Below, one piece after another: positions 16,839-23,870 of a DNA stretch of 64,000 nucleotides; positions within the stretch are counted from its first letter, which is position 1, and each line of letters starts with the position of its first letter. Position numbers and translations under genes: made by a program. Under the pieces are notes generated by a model. The model saw only the letters and a program-made list of their open reading frames with translations. It made no database searches and was not told where the DNA came from. The stretch spans positions 27,090 to 91,089 of the forward strand of contig JBQLZK010000024.1 in the NCBI GenBank assembly GCA_052168235.1, written 5' to 3'. The DNA is from Thainema sp. (GTDB lineage Bacteria > Cyanobacteriota > Cyanobacteriia > Phormidesmidales > Phormidesmidaceae).

Positions 16839-17090
16839 CTAGTATCGTTCGACGCTAGAACTGAAGATCGGTTCCACCCGAATCGCAATCACCTTAGAGG
16901 GACGAATCACCATGTACTCGCCCTGAATGTTCTTGATCGGTACGCTGATAAAGTCATCGGACGTACTCTTGGGGACGAGTTCGCCGCTGTACCACTTTTG
17001 GAAATCCTGAATAGTCGAAAACCGCACTTCTTCGCGATGTCCGCCGTCAATCAAAATATGAACCACAAATTCACTGGGTGTTCTGGGCAT
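16839..17090 (-). CDS. Conserved small cyanobacterial hypothetical protein
   Basis: 83-aa ORF with protein-like composition, co-oriented with mltA. Confidence 0.8.
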   Translation of the reverse strand: MPRTPSEFVVHILIDGGHREEVRFSTIQDFQKWYSGELVPKSTSDDFISVPIKNIQGEYMVIRPSKVIAIRVEPIFSSSVERY

Positions 17091-17278: not shown

Positions 17279-18049
17279 CTAGCGTGCAAGGAGATTAAAG
17301 CGCTGTAGCCGCTCTTTCACTAAATCGGGTAAGCTCTTCCGCATTTCGGCAGCAGTTTGAAAAATCAGCCGATTTTGACCCGGTACGTCAAACGGGAACT
17401 GTCCGGCAAAATCCGTCCGCTCCATTTGCGCCAGGATAATCTGCTCTGGTCGCTTACACTGCAACGCATAGCCAACTTCGACGCTGACCTGCGGACTGGG
17501 TAAAACCTGGGCCGGTGTGCCTGGAATCTGAGCGATTGGCGTGCCGTCCGCAATAAATAGCAAACTCTGGCGCAGCTTACGCATCAGCGTACTCTGGAGC
17601 CGAATCGGGCCTTCCGTCAGCCGATGGGATTCTTCTAGCGCTAGCGGTAGACGCAGTTTGGGATTCAGCTTTTCAATCACGGCTGTCAGTTCTTCCCGCA
17701 GAATTGAGCTGGACTCGCTATATTCCGTTTGGTAGCTCAGGAAAATCGTCGGCTCCAAATGCGTCATCACTTCGCGCTTGGTGAAATACAGCTCATGGCT
17801 GATCAGGTCGATATTAGAAATCGCGTAGCCACCGCTGCCTTCAATGTAAAACTCCACCATCTCCCCAGCCAGATAGCGCTGAAACCAGTCCGACTGCTTG
17901 ACATCTTCCGCGTCATCTAAAAAATCAGCCCGCAGGCCAGATTTCAGCAAACTGTTTTTACTCAAGCGCAAATCATGAGGCCGCTTTTCCAGTTCTTGAA
18001 TCGGCTCATATTCTCCGAGATACCAAGCTTTCAGCGCAATAATGGCCAT
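17279..18049 (-). CDS. Conserved cyanobacterial hypothetical protein (C-terminal TIR-like/nucleotide-binding-like segment)
   Basis: 256 aa; MAIIALKAWYL start; IFLSYQ..LFIADGTP..PSPQVSVEVGYAL..FPFD. Confidence 0.8.
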   Translation of the reverse strand: MAIIALKAWYLGEYEPIQELEKRPHDLRLSKNSLLKSGLRADFLDDAEDVKQSDWFQRYLAGEMVEFYIEGSGGYAISNIDLISHELYFTKREVMTHLEPTIFLSYQTEYSESSSILREELTAVIEKLNPKLRLPLALEESHRLTEGPIRLQSTLMRKLRQSLLFIADGTPIAQIPGTPAQVLPSPQVSVEVGYALQCKRPEQIILAQMERTDFAGQFPFDVPGQNRLIFQTAAEMRKSLPDLVKERLQRFNLLAR

Positions 18050-18314
18050 AATTTGCGTCTACCTGCCTTATGATTGCGATCGCAGTGGGCGATAAGTGGG
18101 CATAATTAACGCCATTTTAACCGCGCCGATTAGAAAAATGAGCAAGAATTGAATGAAGCGAAAACCTTCGTAATCCCGAAATGGAGCGTTTTGTACCCAA
18201 TTGCTCCCATTTACCTGAAAATTTAGCAATTAGGCGATAAAAATCAGCCCTCCCGGCATGACAACTCAGAATAGAAAGTAATAGCGCAATAACTCGTCGC
18301 CTCGAAAATCAGCC

Positions 18315-18374
18315 ACTATAAAGCCGGACGACTCATCACACGCAACGTAGCGATGAATCGTCCGGCTTTATAGT
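18315..18374. terminator. Long hairpin ending the putative ncRNA
   Basis: ACTATAAAGCCGGACGA (18315-18331) / TCGTCCGGCTTTATAGT (18358-18374), with additional inner pairing. Confidence 0.75.
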
Positions 18375-18742
18375 TAACGAATAAGTTTGCGTATCAAAAA
18401 AGAACTAGGTGCTGTAGAGTTTGCTCCTTTTAATTAGATTAGGAAGTACCGAAGTTTTACCACCTAATTCGTTTATCCAAAGACGCAAGTTCCTTTTAAA
18501 TCAACAACACCCAAACCGACTCAGGGAATTCTTCACTTTCTTCGATCATGAATAGAGTTATGACTGAATCGCAAATTATTTTACGTTAATTATCTCAGTC
18601 AAATTGCTCCCTTCTTTTCAATTTGAAGAAATATAAGCAACTTTGTTTGGGTGTTGTGGTTGACGAGACAGACTTAGATTAATCAGAGGTTCTCTCCTTT
18701 TTCCTTAACTAGCTGTATCTGTCAGGGAAGCATCTCTGCTTC
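18315..18742 (-). ncRNA. Putative ~430-nt structured non-coding RNA
   Basis: -10 TATAGT (18750-18755); 5' hairpin GAAGCA-GAGA-UGCUUC; 13-bp long-range helix 18504-18516/18645-18657; cUUCGg loop 18448-18455; 17-bp terminal stem; no ORF of 60 aa or more. Confidence 0.65.
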
Positions 18743-19261
18743 AATTACAACTATAGCCCCTTGGCCTATCGAGATCGCGGTCGGTTTAACAAAGTTTACT
18801 TTTGCGATAGTTGCGATCGCACTTCGTTCTCTAAGCAGGGATCACTGAGTACAGAAGGGCTATAGCATCGCAACGCTATATCTAGAGTCAGATAATCCAC
18901 GAGCAGCAACTGCACTTAATCTAGATCCCGCAAAATTGCTGATTTGGTTCGATACGGTCTGAGAAGAGGAATTTGAACACAGTCAATTTAACGAATAAAG
19001 CCAGTTTAGGATCTTACCTAAACGCTCTGATTCCCATTCAATCAGTTCAAAATAATTGGTTGATGCAGCAGTTGGTGAAGCAATATTTTAAGCAGTAAAT
19101 AATCCAGAGGGCATACGATTTTCAATGCTAAGTCAGTTTGTTTGCTGATTTTAGATATTCTTATATTCAGTGCTGATAATTATTGATCAAAACAAAATTA
19201 ATTAAAAACGTGAGCCAGTTTGGATAATGACTTTCAGTAATTTCAACAGCAGTAGTTTAAT

Positions 19262-19296
19262 AAAGCCAAAGTCAAAGTCAAGGTCAAAGCCAAAGC
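19262..19296. repeat. Hexamer tandem repeat (AAAGYC)x~6
   Basis: AAAGCC AAAGTC AAAGTC AAGGTC AAAGCC AAAGC. Confidence 0.6.
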
Positions 19297-19577
19297 ACTG
19301 GGCCTGATGCATGATCTAGCCCTCTAAATCTAGTTCTCTAAAATTTGATTGCTCGGATATATTTCATTAAGAACCAGCTTCAGTAAAACGTGAACGGCGT
19401 AAACATAAAACACCTGCACAAGCATTTTTACCTAATCAAGATCGCCCGTAATGTCCTGCATTACATCAATTCGTAACTGAACTGCTTGCAACATCTCCAA
19501 TTCCTGGTATCACGGGAGATGATTATTAAAATTGTCAGTTGTAAGCGTAAGCACTGGGGCTGCGGGAGATTTGGGTT

Positions 19578-22500
19578 ATGGATGGCGATATTTCATATAG
19601 CTTGACCGCAATTGTTGGCATTATCACCTTTATCATTGGGCTAATGGTGCAGCCATCCTCAAAGCAAAAGCTCAAGGAGATTGAGGGTACGACCGAACGG
19701 TTAGAGCAGGAAAAAGAGCAGCTTACCCATAATTTGCAACAGGCAACTGACACCGTGGCCCAGCTGCAGCGCCAGATCGAAAACGTGTCTCAAGAGCGCC
19801 AAACCCTACAAGAGGCGATGGACTTGACTCGCAATGTGGTGACCGCCTTAGAGCAACAAGTTAGCGAGGCCAACCAGGCCAAAGAGCAGCTTGAAGCCAC
19901 TTTAGGTGAGCAAAACACAGACGCCGATACACTGCAAACCCGATTAAAGGATCTCACCGAGCAAAATGCACAGTTAGAAGAGCAGTTAAATGAAACACTG
20001 CGCGATCGCAATTCTCTAGTTGAAACCCTACAGCAGCAGCTTGAGGATCTTAGTCAAGCGAATGAAGCACTCCAGCGTGAAGACGGACAAGATGCCGCAG
20101 CGAATGAAGCGCTACAGCAGGCCCTAGATGAGGCACAAGCAACCGCACAAGCATTGGAACAGCAGGTCAATAGCCTCACCCAGGAAAATGCCACCATGCA
20201 GGAAACCGTGACGCTGGCTCAGCAAACGGTACAGGCACTAGAACAACAGATCAGTGAACTGTCCCAAGACAAGACGACGCTGGAAGAGGCAATGACGCTG
20301 GCCCAGCAAACCGCGCAGTCGCTGCAAGAGCAGGTAGATGACTTGAGTCGTCACCGCAGCGCCCTAGAGAAGTTGTTGGAAGATGCCCAGAAGTCAGTTG
20401 AAGCTCTGCACCAACGAGCAGAACGCTTAGAAGAGCAGAAGGCTGCACTGGAGCAGGAGTTTCGACAAGAGAATACGTCCTCCGAACAATTGCAGGCTGA
20501 AATTCAAGCACTCACAGCCACCCAGATGCAGCTGACAGAAGAACTCGAAACGGCTCAGGCCCAAATTGCCGCACTTCAACCCCAGATGGCCGCACTGAAT
20601 CAAGATAAGCGGACGCTGTCTGAGGCACTGCAGATTGCAGAAGCCAGTGTGAGATCGCTGGAGCAGCAGCAGCTTGAGTTGGAACAGGCCACTGCGGCTG
20701 AAACCACCTCCAGCCAGGAAATTCAGGCTCAAATCAATGGGCTGAACCAAGAGCGATCGCAACTGCTGGCGGATCTCAATACGGCGCAACAGACAATTCA
20801 ATCGCTCCAGCCCCAAATTGAATCGCTGACCAGCGACCGACAAACATTGGAAGAAGCCCTAAATCTGGCCCAGCAAACCGTCACTGCTCTAGAACAGCAA
20901 ATCACGGAGCTATCATCCGCAGGGCAACGAGATGTAGATGAAGCGCTGGAGCAGGAGCGCCAGTCAGCAGCCGAGTTGCGGCAGCAAATTGCCGCTCTAG
21001 AGCAGCAGCGACAGCAACTTGAAACCCAATTTCAGACGCAGCAAACCTCCGCTGCTGATCTGCGTAACCAGGTGCAAACGCTCAATCACGAAAAAGAGCG
21101 GCTGGCTGAACAGCTCAGCGACAAGGAAAGCGCGATCGCAACTCTGCAAACCCAGTTGAAAACCGCTGAACAACAGCAAATTCGGCTAAAAGAACTTGAA
21201 ACAGAGCTAGAACAGGAGCGTACATCAGCGACGATCCTGCAAGAACAGATTGCGCAGCTCACTCAGGATAGTGATGATTTACTAGAAGAGCTAGAGGCTA
21301 AAGAAATTGCCATTGCAGGACTACAGGCGCAACTGCGAGATGCATCGAGCCATGCCGATCGCCTGACCGAGCTTGAAGCCGAACTGGCCCAGGAGCGCAC
21401 CGCAAAACAAACGCTCCAGCAAGAATTCAATCAGATTCGAGATCGCAATGCCAGCCTGACCCGCGACCTAGAAGAACAGGAAGGTGCGATCGCAGTCTTA
21501 CAAACCCAGCTTCAACAGGCAGAACAGCAGGAATCACGCCTATTAGAACTAGAGACCGAGCTAGACGCTGCCCAAGCCCAATCTACAGCGCTTCAGCAGC
21601 AAATTGACACCTTGACCCAGGAAAAAGACCAACTTGCGGCAGATCTTGACGAAAAAGAAGCTGCGATCGCAGTTCTGCAAACCCAGGTGGAATCACAATC
21701 TGCCGCCGCAGATGCCCAGGCCAAACTCGAAGAACTCACCGCTCAACTGCACAGTGAGCAGGACACGGTACAAGACCTACGGCAGCAAATTCAGAATCTA
21801 GCTGCCGAAAAAGATGAGTTAGCCGCTCAACTGGCTGAGCGAGAAACGATTATCACCGAACTGGAACAAGCCTCAATGCCCAGTACGGATGGTGCCGACT
21901 GGCAAACTCAAATCGACGAGCTAGAAATTGCACTGCAGCAGGAACAAGATGCGGCCAGTACTCTAAGACAGCAGCTGACGGAGCTGACGCAGATCAATGA
22001 GCAACTTCAGGCAGACTTAGCAACCGTTGAAACGCAATCCAGCCGTACCACCGAGGATCTACAGACCCAAGTCGATGAGCTGACCCAGCAAAAGCAGCAG
22101 TTGGAAAAGGCGCTGCAAGAATCGCAATCAACTGTTGATTCACTCGACGCTCTTGTCCGCGACCTCAGTCAGGATCGCGAACATCTCGAACAGGAAACCG
22201 AAAATGCTCAAACTGCGATCGCGCCGCTGCAAGCTGAAATTGAACGACTTGAACAGCAGCTTGCTCTGGTCACCTCGACAGAATCTGAGGTAGATACGGC
22301 TGAACTGGAAGACCAAATTGCTGCTCTCCAGCAGGAACGGGATGAACTTCAGACGAATCTGCGATCGCTGCAAGATAATTTGGCAGCGGTGCAAAGCCGA
22401 CTGAGTGAACTCCAGCAGGAGAACTCGCAGCTTAACTCGCAACTGGCAGAGGCACTGAATACCGCAATCGATACCACTGATTTAGAACGTGAACTCCAAC

Positions 22501-23870
22501 AGCTACAGCAGGAACGGGAGCGACTCACCCAGGAACTTCAAGACGCCCAAACCACTGCGCAAACGTCACTCGACGAGCTACAAGCCCAGCTACAAACTCT
22601 AAAGCAGCAAAATGCCGAACTAACCACCGCATTGGAGCAAGCGGCTGACACGGACGAACTAGAAATTCAACTCATATCCCTGACGCAAGAACGCGATCAG
22701 CTCGAGCAAGAACTCCAGACCAGTCAGGACACCCTCAAGGATTTGCAAAGCCAGATTAGCGATCTGGAGCATCAAAATGAAAACTTATCCCTATCGCTGG
22801 AACAAGCCGCTGATACAAGTGAATTTGAGTCCCAAATCGAAGCACTGCATGAAGAACGGCAGCAGCTTACCCAAGATTTACAAGCTGCTCAGGATACTTC
22901 GGCAACATTAGAACAGCAGATTCAGGCTTTGCAGCAACAACTCCAAACCTTGCAGCAGCAAAACGCTGAACTCGACGATATGCTGCAAGCGATGGAAGAT
23001 CCAACCGAGCTGGAAGCGCAAATCGAACAATTGACCCAGGAACGCGATCGCACTCGTCAGGATCTCAACACCCTGCAGGAAACCGTCATTAGCCTACAGA
23101 CGCAAATCGACCAGCTTACCCAAGAGCGACAGCAGTTTAGCCAGCAAGTTCAGACGGCTGAACAGACAATTAGTGAGTTGCGATCGCAAATTGCATCCCT
23201 AGAACAGTCCGCTCAAGCTGTGTCTGGCACTGATGCCGATTTAAAAGAAACTTTAGAGGCACTAACCGCTGAACGGCAGCAGCTTGAACAAGCATTAGAA
23301 CAAACCCAGACAACGGTTCAGTCTCTCGAAACTCAGGTGCAAAAACTCACAGGCGAAAAACGCACCCTGGAAGAAGCAATGAAAATGGCCCAGGAAGTTG
23401 TTGGCAGCTTGCAGCAGCAAATCGCCGCATTAGCTCAAGAAAATGAGCAATTAAGCGCTCAGTCATCGACTGTCCAAAATCAACCTCAATACCAACCATC
23501 TCCACCATCAGCTAGTCCTGCTTCCCCACCAGCAGAGGAAAAATCGGCTACGCCAGAAATCCCTGCGGCACCATCGGCTGAATCACCTGAGCCAGGAGAA
23601 TTACTCTCTGAAGATGCCGCTGCAAATTCATCCCTAGAAGACAAAACTATCGTGATTACAGGTACATTCAAAGGAATTGACGTCAACAAATTACGCGACA
23701 TGGTGCAAGCCGCAGGTGCCCGCATCACCAGTATGCCCAGTGCTCAAACAGACTACATTGTGGTTGGCGACAACCCCAGCGGTAACAAGCTCGCCAAAGC
23801 CGAAAAGGTAGGAGTGCCGCAAATATCTGAGGATCAGTTATTTGCGATGCTCGGCATCTCAGAACTGTAG
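19578..23870 (+). CDS. Giant coiled-coil protein with N-terminal membrane anchor and C-terminal BRCT domain
   Basis: TM AIVGIITFIIGLMV; ~1250 aa of Q/E/L heptads; Pro-rich linker; LEDKTIVITGTF..GARITS..TDYIVVG..GNKLAKAEKVGVPQISED (LigA-type BRCT). Confidence 0.9.
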   Translation: MDGDISYSLTAIVGIITFIIGLMVQPSSKQKLKEIEGTTERLEQEKEQLTHNLQQATDTVAQLQRQIENVSQERQTLQEAMDLTRNVVTALEQQVSEANQAKEQLEATLGEQNTDADTLQTRLKDLTEQNAQLEEQLNETLRDRNSLVETLQQQLEDLSQANEALQREDGQDAAANEALQQALDEAQATAQALEQQVNSLTQENATMQETVTLAQQTVQALEQQISELSQDKTTLEEAMTLAQQTAQSLQEQVDDLSRHRSALEKLLEDAQKSVEALHQRAERLEEQKAALEQEFRQENTSSEQLQAEIQALTATQMQLTEELETAQAQIAALQPQMAALNQDKRTLSEALQIAEASVRSLEQQQLELEQATAAETTSSQEIQAQINGLNQERSQLLADLNTAQQTIQSLQPQIESLTSDRQTLEEALNLAQQTVTALEQQITELSSAGQRDVDEALEQERQSAAELRQQIAALEQQRQQLETQFQTQQTSAADLRNQVQTLNHEKERLAEQLSDKESAIATLQTQLKTAEQQQIRLKELETELEQERTSATILQEQIAQLTQDSDDLLEELEAKEIAIAGLQAQLRDASSHADRLTELEAELAQERTAKQTLQQEFNQIRDRNASLTRDLEEQEGAIAVLQTQLQQAEQQESRLLELETELDAAQAQSTALQQQIDTLTQEKDQLAADLDEKEAAIAVLQTQVESQSAAADAQAKLEELTAQLHSEQDTVQDLRQQIQNLAAEKDELAAQLAERETIITELEQASMPSTDGADWQTQIDELEIALQQEQDAASTLRQQLTELTQINEQLQADLATVETQSSRTTEDLQTQVDELTQQKQQLEKALQESQSTVDSLDALVRDLSQDREHLEQETENAQTAIAPLQAEIERLEQQLALVTSTESEVDTAELEDQIAALQQERDELQTNLRSLQDNLAAVQSRLSELQQENSQLNSQLAEALNTAIDTTDLERELQQLQQERERLTQELQDAQTTAQTSLDELQAQLQTLKQQNAELTTALEQAADTDELEIQLISLTQERDQLEQELQTSQDTLKDLQSQISDLEHQNENLSLSLEQAADTSEFESQIEALHEERQQLTQDLQAAQDTSATLEQQIQALQQQLQTLQQQNAELDDMLQAMEDPTELEAQIEQLTQERDRTRQDLNTLQETVISLQTQIDQLTQERQQFSQQVQTAEQTISELRSQIASLEQSAQAVSGTDADLKETLEALTAERQQLEQALEQTQTTVQSLETQVQKLTGEKRTLEEAMKMAQEVVGSLQQQIAALAQENEQLSAQSSTVQNQPQYQPSPPSASPASPPAEEKSATPEIPAAPSAESPEPGELLSEDAAANSSLEDKTIVITGTFKGIDVNKLRDMVQAAGARITSMPSAQTDYIVVGDNPSGNKLAKAEKVGVPQISEDQLFAMLGISEL

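Follow-up and report, generated by a model that had tools for sequence, protein, structure and literature searches.

What does the long intergenic region 5′ of a conserved protein gene encode in the cyanobacterium Thainema sp.: a free-standing RNA, or a leader tied to that gene? The DNA considered here, referred to as the window, is a stretch of 64,000 nucleotides (nt) from contig JBQLZK010000024.1 (GenBank assembly GCA_052168235.1). An earlier reading of its sequence alone (the original prediction) had placed in it a highly structured, free-standing minus-strand RNA of ∼430 nt carrying repeated purine-rich motifs. Judged by comparison with related genomes, window positions 18494-18748 on the minus strand, with a promoter reaching to approximately 18812, belong to an uncatalogued family of conserved RNAs, ∼255–300 nt long, that lie 5′ of a gene for a 256-amino acid (aa) protein. 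The RNA is probably a 5′ leader that controls the downstream gene in many filamentous cyanobacteria. More specifically, we put at about one half the probability that it is an operon leader acting on translation through alternative pairing of a single near-invariant segment, AUCUGUCUCG; a free-standing role is a serious rival.

Distribution and novelty of the element

Relatives were compared as 12-kilobase (kb) loci, which comprised the best 80 of at least 554 genomic relatives of the 256-aa gene, with one genome per species. Homology to window positions 18494-18812 was detected 5′ of the gene in 42 of the 80 loci (blastn, nhmmer and covariance model). The element is co-oriented with the gene orthologues, and nhmmer together with the covariance model resolved it into 45 copies, because three loci (L015, L042 and L054) each hold a tandem pair. 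Among the carriers are Leptolyngbya sp. JSC-1 (L024), Leptothermofonsia sp. ETS-13 (L060) and Elainella saxicola (L009). Under the covariance model, the relatives' copies scored 69–155 bits on the gene strand versus 17–33 bits on the reverse strand, an asymmetry that assigns the RNA to the minus strand here; the window copy scored 90.6 bits (E = 5.8e-21; model R1, domain 2). Within the 12-kb loci and the 64-kb window, copies sit only beside the 256-aa gene, with a single copy in the window, and a blastn search of plasmid and phage collections with positions 18250-18800 returned no match.

In 14 further loci only a 3′-half remnant was found, perhaps a shortened or variant version of the RNA, and no element was detectable in the other 24, among them two (L079 and L034) whose upstream sequence is too short for a verdict. 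Loci with the RNA are dispersed over the gene tree, on which at least 14 changes are forced; the RNA is therefore taken to be old in the group and to have been lost or truncated many times.

The 14 remnant loci (L006, L010, L012, L014, L016, L022, L026, L029, L033, L038, L063, L070, L074 and L080) keep the 3′ half of the rod described below, the UUUUAAA tail and the leader motif, ∼150 nt 5′ of the gene start. In a Stenomitos-like group, another 5′ part containing GUCUGUCUCU stands in place of the rest of the element. In the tandem pairs (L015:4897-5558, L042:5215-5868 and L054:5081-5859), each copy comes with an upstream motif and −10 box of its own; within a pair, the 5′ member has diverged further (69–79 bits versus 91–96 bits), and L015 and L042 are arranged alike.

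No family of Rfam 15 (4227 models) matched anywhere in the window at the family gathering thresholds, nor did the high-scoring relative L060 match one, in keeping with the original impression that the RNA is unlike tRNA, tmRNA, RNase P, SRP or 6S RNA. With permissive filters, positions 17900-19700 gave three chance-level matches (best E = 0.43), none of them over the conserved core. The 6S and T-box models gave no match at E up to 10 in the window region or in L060, and across ten whole loci the only Rfam matches were two tRNAs, which lie apart from the element at >6 kb 3′ of the gene start. Full-text literature searches returned no account of the element. Conserved RNA structures have been predicted in 202 cyanobacterial genomes by a screen anchored on 931 gene groups set by KEGG orthology terms (Geissler et al. 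2026; PMC12873609, main text). No description of this element was found in that main text; overlap with the wider predictions of the study is possible. The 256-aa gene matches no Pfam, NCBIfam or PADLOC family and would therefore probably fall beyond a KEGG-anchored screen. According to the same text, fewer than 60 Rfam families have a cyanobacterial sequence in their seed alignment. The element thus described is an uncatalogued, large and well-supported structured RNA family in Leptolyngbya-like cyanobacteria, with few cyanobacterial peers.

Predicted fold and promoter of the conserved RNA

Comparison of the copies supports a predicted two-domain fold, in which a 5′ hairpin (H1) and a small domain 1 (helices H2 and H3) are followed by a 170-nt rod of four nested helices (HA to HD; Table 1). 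In a 39-copy MAFFT alignment, which was not fitted to structure, the family fold pairs 90.6% of alignment cells versus 37–44% with slid partners, and 29 of 56 pairs show two-sided changes. These changes occupy 140 cells, compared with 46 ± 6.6 in shuffles, and none of 500 shuffles scored as high. RNAalifold on this alignment gave only H2, HA and HB; the helices HC, HD, H1 and H3 were placed manually on the strength of column statistics and afterwards tested on the 39 copies. In a 46-copy alignment of the rod, which was fitted to the model and leans towards the structure, 28 of 38 pairs have a two-sided change and 90.1% of cells are paired versus 36–43% with slid partners. Covariation across the relatives' upstream regions, which the original prediction had named as a check on itself, is therefore present in the rod.

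Helix H2 (99.6% of cells paired, four of seven pairs invariant) and the inner helix H3 (ACAGC/GCUGU in the family, 93.3% paired) are near-invariant, and are therefore conserved without covariation support. The H1 hairpin is also present in the relatives' single-sequence folds of domain 1. The purine-rich loop of this domain reads AAAAAGGAG in the window and AAGAGGUAAAAG in the family, and the column statistics for a possible contact between it and the UUUUAAA tail are weak. Directly 3′ of HA, 39 of the 45 relatives' copies have UUU(U)AA, which might serve as a short U-tract for termination, be cut by a nuclease or act as a standby site for ribosomes. In L060 the family fold is also the minimum free energy (MFE) fold.

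Neither a conserved ATG column nor a conserved open reading frame (ORF) exists in the element, whose lengths are spread evenly over the three mod-3 classes; a conserved small ORF or leader peptide is ruled out on this basis. The gap is not strictly free of reading frames, as had been supposed: several ORFs of 31–53 aa are listed, the longest of which (18068-18229) lies within the non-conserved spacer and has no Pfam or PADLOC match. Relatives, covariation and the lack of a conserved ORF together favour a structured, non-coding minus-strand RNA with its own predicted promoter, as originally proposed.

Features that had been read from the window sequence alone fared differently in the family. 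The perfect 13-nt inverted repeat exists and, as HA, is conserved, and both GACUGA/UCAGUC (now part of HD) and the cUUCGg loop (18449-18454) are present in the window. The four-way junction drawn inside the 13-bp helix is not conserved: among the 39 relatives, AAGUUGCUU/GAGCAAUUU pairs in 49.7% of cells, ACUC/GAGU in 48.1% and AUUC/GAAU in 34.6%. These interior hairpins belong to the MFE fold of the window sequence taken by itself. A UGAC/GUCA stem forms in 78.8% of cells and shows no two-sided change; the conserved helix is the adjacent GACAGAU/GUCUGUC. The conserved unit measures ∼255 nt rather than ∼430 nt, the 3′ 180 nt of the longer version belonging to a lineage-specific spacer.

As the original prediction had expected, the 431-nt stretch folds better than dinucleotide-shuffled controls (−135.6 kcal/mol versus −94.25 ± 5.75 in 100 shuffles; z = −7.19, with 0 of 100 as good). 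Much of this excess comes from the terminal hairpin, and the conserved core (18493-18748) has z = −3.63. Folding energy does not discriminate between the strands, because the opposite strand, at z = −3.55, is near the value of the core.

A predicted promoter precedes the RNA. A TAnnnT hexamer lies 6–8 nt 5′ of H1 in 40 of the 45 copies; in the window it is TATAGT, present together with the GAAGCA-GAGA-UGCUUC hairpin just as first described, and transcription is predicted to start near 18743-18745. Further upstream, GTAAAYTTT is exact in 38 of the 45 copies and ends 34 nt (33–36) 5′ of the −10 hexamer in the 35 copies that have both. Many copies, read by eye, also have a TTGAT-type −35 sequence between the two. 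Such a motif may bind a transcription factor or work in the manner of an UP element. It was considered as a LexA box, which a passage of PMC3091678 gives for cyanobacteria as RGTACNNNDGTWCB / AGTACWNWTGTACT; the family consensus GTAAACTTTGgTTTCA has a similar AAC-N4-GTT core, but its half-sites differ and the candidate was rejected. The strict LexA-box pattern was absent from the window intergenic region and occurred in only 1 of the 42 element loci. The non-conserved intergenic part 5′ of the promoter holds a tandem repeat of the hexamer AAAGTC (5.7 copies, 19262-19295).

Table 1. Positions in the window of the RNA element, its predicted promoter, the spacer and the genes downstream.
Feature	Position	Strand	Description
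Upstream motif	18784..18799	-	GTAAACTTTGTTAAAC in the window, family consensus GTAAACTTTGgTTTCA; about −55 to −40 from the predicted start
−10 box	18750..18755	-	TATAGT, 7 nt before H1
H1, 5′ hairpin	18727..18742	-	GAAGCA-GAGA-UGCUUC; 86.2% of cells paired, one two-sided pair change
Domain 1	18667..18723	-	Closed by H2; inner helix H3 and purine-rich loop
H2	18717-18723 with 18667-18673	-	GACAGAU with GUCUGUC; family form GGCAGAU/AUCUGUC
Near-invariant segment, H2 3′ strand	18664..18673	-	GUCUGUCUCG in the window, AUCUGUCUCG in the family; invariant alignment columns
Domain 2, nested rod	18498..18661	-	Covariance model R1 and covariation
HA	18645-18657 with 18504-18516	-	13-bp helix of the original prediction; closes the rod
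HB	18625-18637 with 18520-18534	-	Family UUGA-AUUUCCUC with GAGGAAAU-UCAG
HC	in 18607-18611 with 18554-18557	-	GGAG with CUCU; family GGAG/CUCY
HD	in 18592-18600 with 18558-18567	-	GACUGA with UCAGUC; family ACUGAUUG/CAAUCAGU; variable tip
3′ tail	18494..18500	-	UUUAAAA straight after HA
Lineage-specific spacer	18050..18493	-	Holds the UUGCGU/ACGCAA domain and the cUUCGg stem
Long hairpin	18315..18374	-	23-nt arms, 96% complementary; 28 MFE pairs; followed by UUUAUAGU
Leader motif version	18061..18068	-	AGGCAGGU; 12–19 nt before AUG; 8 nt complementary to the invariant segment
256-aa gene	17279..18049	-	N-terminal beta-rich domain and C-terminal flavodoxin-like nucleotide N-glycosidase/TIR-like fold
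83-aa gene	16839..17090	-	Probably same operon; 3′ of the 256-aa gene in 48 of 80 loci, 73–86% identity

Proposed coupling to the downstream gene and rival explanations

Between the rod and the AUG of the 256-aa gene lie 23–40 nt in 18 of the 42 element loci, 41–80 nt in 13, 81–200 nt in 4 and >200 nt in 7, so that the RNA ends within 80 nt of the AUG in 31. A gap of 23–40 nt has no room for a separate promoter, and in those 18 loci the gene is therefore presumably read from the promoter of the RNA. The proximity argues against the free-standing RNA first proposed in most relatives; for the window that proposal may hold. On the predicted transcript, the element is placed as riboswitches are, as a structured element in the 5′ untranslated region (UTR) of the regulated gene.

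A leader motif, CGAG(G/A)CAG(A/G), lies 7–23 nt 5′ of the AUG and is complementary to AUCUGUCUCG. In 28 of the 42 element loci, the final 45 nt 5′ of the AUG include an unbroken run of at least seven bases complementary to this segment, compared with 8.1 ± 2.5 loci (maximum 16) in shuffles. In MFE folds of the full leader, the segment pairs with the leader in 21 of 27 short-spacer loci, and its ensemble probability in short-spacer leaders is 0.72 for the leader versus 0.17 for the 5′ strand of H2; when tails were shuffled, segment–leader pairing appeared in 70 of 270 folds. For L060, the predicted energy is −94.2 kcal/mol versus −76.8 with the leader kept free, the buried state being ∼17 kcal/mol more stable.

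The predicted energies and the invariant sequence suggest a switch in which the segment would have two mutually exclusive partners. Pairing with the 5′ strand GGCAGAU would form domain 1 and leave the ribosome-binding region free; pairing with CGAG(G/A)CAG near the AUG would extend the rod and bury that region. Domain 1 would act as an anti-sequestrator, with the rod holding both ends together, and whatever stabilises it, be it co-transcriptional folding, a ligand or a protein, would turn translation on.

A number of observations weigh against such a switch. Shuffled tails still pair with the segment in 26% of folds. H2 and the alternative helix both lack covariation support, because the segment and its two partners hardly vary, and the start and end of the transcript and its co-transcription with the gene are all predicted from sequence. 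The leader motif also occurs in 10 of 23 loci without a detected element, and it may be conserved for translation itself. Furthermore, the RNA is conserved where it seems uncoupled from the gene: it scores 122–129 bits in L062, L069, L053 and L049, where spacers of 270–415 nt contain strong hairpins or terminator-like sites. L062 and L069 have a perfect 30-bp hairpin 3′ of the RNA and a LexA-box-like site in the interval before the gene, and their ribosome-binding region has lost its complementarity to the segment (longest run 3); in L053 and L049 the RNA is followed by a terminator-like hairpin with a U tail. Segment–leader pairing is absent in the window and in other long-spacer loci. The window copy has the lowest score among the non-duplicated copies, and its family fold (−54.5 kcal/mol) is 12 kcal/mol worse than its MFE fold (−66.7). 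Finally, tandem, separately promoted copies in three loci are more typical of independent small-RNA genes, and the repeated loss or degradation of the RNA on the gene tree likewise counts against it.

In the window itself, 448 nt separate the RNA from the AUG. Homology to the relatives ends at about 18431-18498 (nhmmer, covariance model), just past the 13-bp helix, and positions 18050-18493 have no similarity in the 80 loci or the rest of the window, their own hairpin excepted. The spacer is without counterpart and the leader motif reappears beyond it, and it is therefore regarded as an insertion into the leader, not a part of the family. A repeated or mobile element was considered for the spacer and its hairpin and rejected, as there is no other copy in the window or the 80 loci. 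The terminal stem described earlier at this point is real, with longer arms than the 17 bp first given (Table 1). Its G+C-rich core stem followed by UUUAUAGU may, as read by eye, be a bidirectional intrinsic terminator; it was not flagged by a terminator scan whose rules allow only loops of 3–8. When the whole 714-nt leader of the window is folded computationally, H2 persists (p = 0.73) and the invariant segment has no probability of pairing with the leader (p = 0.0); a working switch is thus not predicted at this locus. The window element looks uncoupled from its gene and may end at the terminator-like hairpin; what the locus produces is probably a ∼430-nt free RNA or, alternatively, a very long 5′ UTR. 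The family thus shows a leader RNA uncoupled from its gene by insertions, which could be a route from a cis-regulator to a free-standing RNA.

An 11-nt inverted repeat (91% complementary) joins positions 18050-18060, the bases before the AUG, with 18481-18491 at the start of the spacer. In the predicted 714-nt leader fold, the spacer closes on itself.

The downstream protein has 1818 database relatives at E ≤0.001, the best 120 of which are 70–97% identical, and its gene is 67–75% identical over the 80 species' loci (at least 554 confirmed genome matches). A PDB search by sequence gave only a chance match (E = 0.64). An AlphaFold2 model from a 44-row alignment reached a predicted local distance difference test (pLDDT) score of 94; a model from a shallow 21-row alignment (pLDDT 45.9) was discarded. 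With Foldseek, the C-terminal half of the model matches, as its nearest solved structures, the cytidine monophosphate (CMP) N-glycosidases MilB and BcmB, DNPH1, and the TIR-containing SfSTING (7un8_A) and SARM1, and distant sequence relatives lie at or below the cut-off of the Pfam CAP12/Pycsar TIR and nucleoside deoxyribosyltransferase models. For the N-terminal 98 residues, the ESM Atlas returned no usable match. The 83-aa protein is likewise without a Pfam, NCBIfam or PADLOC match, and an MltA gene comes next after it in 44 of the 80 loci.

Loci without the RNA are of interest for the regulation of this gene. A 14-mer such as AGTACAATTGTTCT or AGTACAAATGAACT occurs 5′ of the gene in 13 of 22 RNA-less loci versus 0.86 in shuffles, and these 14-mers resemble the cyanobacterial LexA sites published in the cited passage of PMC3091678. 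The resemblance suggests that the 256-aa gene belongs to a DNA-damage regulon where the RNA is absent. The 13 loci are L027, L028, L032, L050, L051, L058, L061, L065, L071, L075, L076, L077 and L078, and the 14-mers lie 14–215 nt before the gene start. Among RNA-bearing loci, L062, L069, L030 and L052 have such a 14-mer between the RNA and the gene.

How, then, does the translational leader stand beside other explanations? That the RNA is an independent stable molecule, acting in trans or within a ribonucleoprotein, its adjacency to the gene reflecting shared history or a functional link, is possible if doubtful. Its 3′ end would be the rod-closing helix plus UUUU, or a downstream terminator. 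The conserved promoter with an upstream motif at fixed distance points this way, as do the UUU(U)AA that follows a closing helix of 12–17 bp in 39 of 45 copies, the strong hairpins or terminator-like sites 3′ of the RNA in the window and the four uncoupled loci named above, and the separately promoted tandem pairs. The high model scores where the RNA is uncoupled, the invariant segments kept in the uncoupled loci and in the window, and the folded domain 1 retained by the full window leader are equally consistent with it. Against it stand the 18 loci in which 23–40 nt to the AUG make a separate promoter impossible, the finding of the RNA only beside the 256-aa gene within the 12-kb loci and the window, and a terminator scan that was empty after the rod of L060; with 170 nt enclosed by the closing helix and no more than 3–4 U behind it, the rod would make a poor intrinsic terminator. 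The RNA may also act as a free molecule in addition to a leader, because the uncoupled copies are well conserved and the tandem copies have promoters.

Other proposals carry far less weight. In the manner of a type III toxin-antitoxin system, the RNA could be the antitoxin or partner of a toxic TIR/N-glycosidase-like effector, an idea to which the fold that the protein shares with CMP N-glycosidases and the TIR-containing SfSTING and SARM1, the distant relatives near the CAP12/Pycsar TIR cut-off and the position of the RNA directly 5′ of the gene lend some colour. It is nevertheless very unlikely: positions 18494-18748 contain no tandem or direct repeat family, PADLOC gives no match, the high conservation of the gene and its stable synteny with the 83-aa gene and MltA are unlike mobile defence or toxin modules, and the RNA has been lost repeatedly with the gene retained, which would be lethal for a true antitoxin. 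Just as little is to be expected of the sponge, titrating a protein or an anti-Shine-Dalgarno RNA, that had been suggested by four AAAAGGA-type purine motifs. Two of these do fall within conserved parts of the RNA (18694-18702, and GGGAG at 18607-18611), and the family retains three Shine-Dalgarno-like motifs (GGGAG, GAGAGGAA and, in the loop of domain 1, AAGAGGU). The remaining two of the four (18489-18497 and 18423-18431) belong largely or entirely to the non-conserved spacer, GGGAG (HC) and GAGAGGAA (HB) are base-paired strands of covarying helices rather than exposed, and there is no repeat family; the sponge loses its basis because repeated purine motifs are not a family trait. Slimmest of all is the chance that nothing here functions, the fold being fortuitous, a decaying mobile element or a promoter region only. 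The divergent window copy (90.6 bits, with the family fold not its MFE fold), the frequent loss of the RNA and core folding z-scores that are modest and equal on both strands would suit such a view; the presence of 45 more copies across the loci of 42 species, two-sided compensation at 28 of the 38 rod pairs, the strong strand asymmetry of the model scores and the lack of mobile-element-like copies elsewhere in the window or the loci speak against it.

Returning to the translational leader, one may speculate about its signal. A new riboswitch-like sensor, of a small molecule or a protein, may, in a large group of filamentous cyanobacteria, have taken over a nucleotide N-glycosidase-like, DNA-damage-linked gene that has a LexA-box-like operator in RNA-less sister lineages; we consider this unlikely. 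The signal could then be a damaged or modified nucleotide or another DNA-damage product, and the predicted N-glycosidase/TIR-like fold of the gene product is a vague hint towards nucleotides as the ligand. The RNA is tied to a highly conserved gene pair without assigned function, and if it is a sensor, its trigger would show the purpose of the gene that it precedes.

Two further observations concern the surroundings. A divergent gene on the plus strand (19578-23870) encodes a 1430-aa coiled-coil protein with a C-terminal BRCT domain, and it stands beside the RNA in 0 of the 80 loci. The palindrome GCGATCGC occurs 85 times in the window versus 1.6 expected, an over-representation that we take to be the HIP1 signature characteristic of cyanobacterial genomes; one copy stands on either side of the element (18076-18083 and 18813-18820).

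Comparison with known systems

Among known RNAs, translational riboswitches offer the first comparison, and the glutamine riboswitch in the gifB 5′ UTR is an example of a structured leader in cyanobacteria (PMC6212724). The element shares with them a conserved structured 5′ leader on the gene strand, conserved nucleotides at loops and helix ends, and a segment that, here by prediction, would pair within the sensor or, alternatively, with the ribosome-binding region. Unlike them, it has no Rfam family match; at 255–300 nt and two domains it is larger than most aptamers; its gene suggests no ligand; and it is retained far from the gene and in tandem copies that are separately promoted.

6S RNA (ssrS) is a rod-shaped stable RNA directly 5′ of a conserved protein gene with which it is co-transcribed. 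The element resembles it in the long irregular rod with large internal loops, in a strong-looking promoter of its own and in same-strand synteny with a downstream protein gene. It differs in having an additional 5′ domain and no Rfam 6S match; moreover, 6S RNA is near-universal, whereas the element is confined to a subset of filamentous cyanobacteria and has been repeatedly lost.

The original prediction had also thought of PmgR1 (Ncr0700, Synechocystis). Compared by description only, as given in a passage of PMC8682795, both are cyanobacterial non-coding RNAs without a known direct target, and none of the present results hints at kinship between them. The likeness to the predictions in the main text of PMC12873609 is of another kind: there as here, a conserved RNA structure adjoining an orthologous cyanobacterial gene was recognised by comparative analysis.

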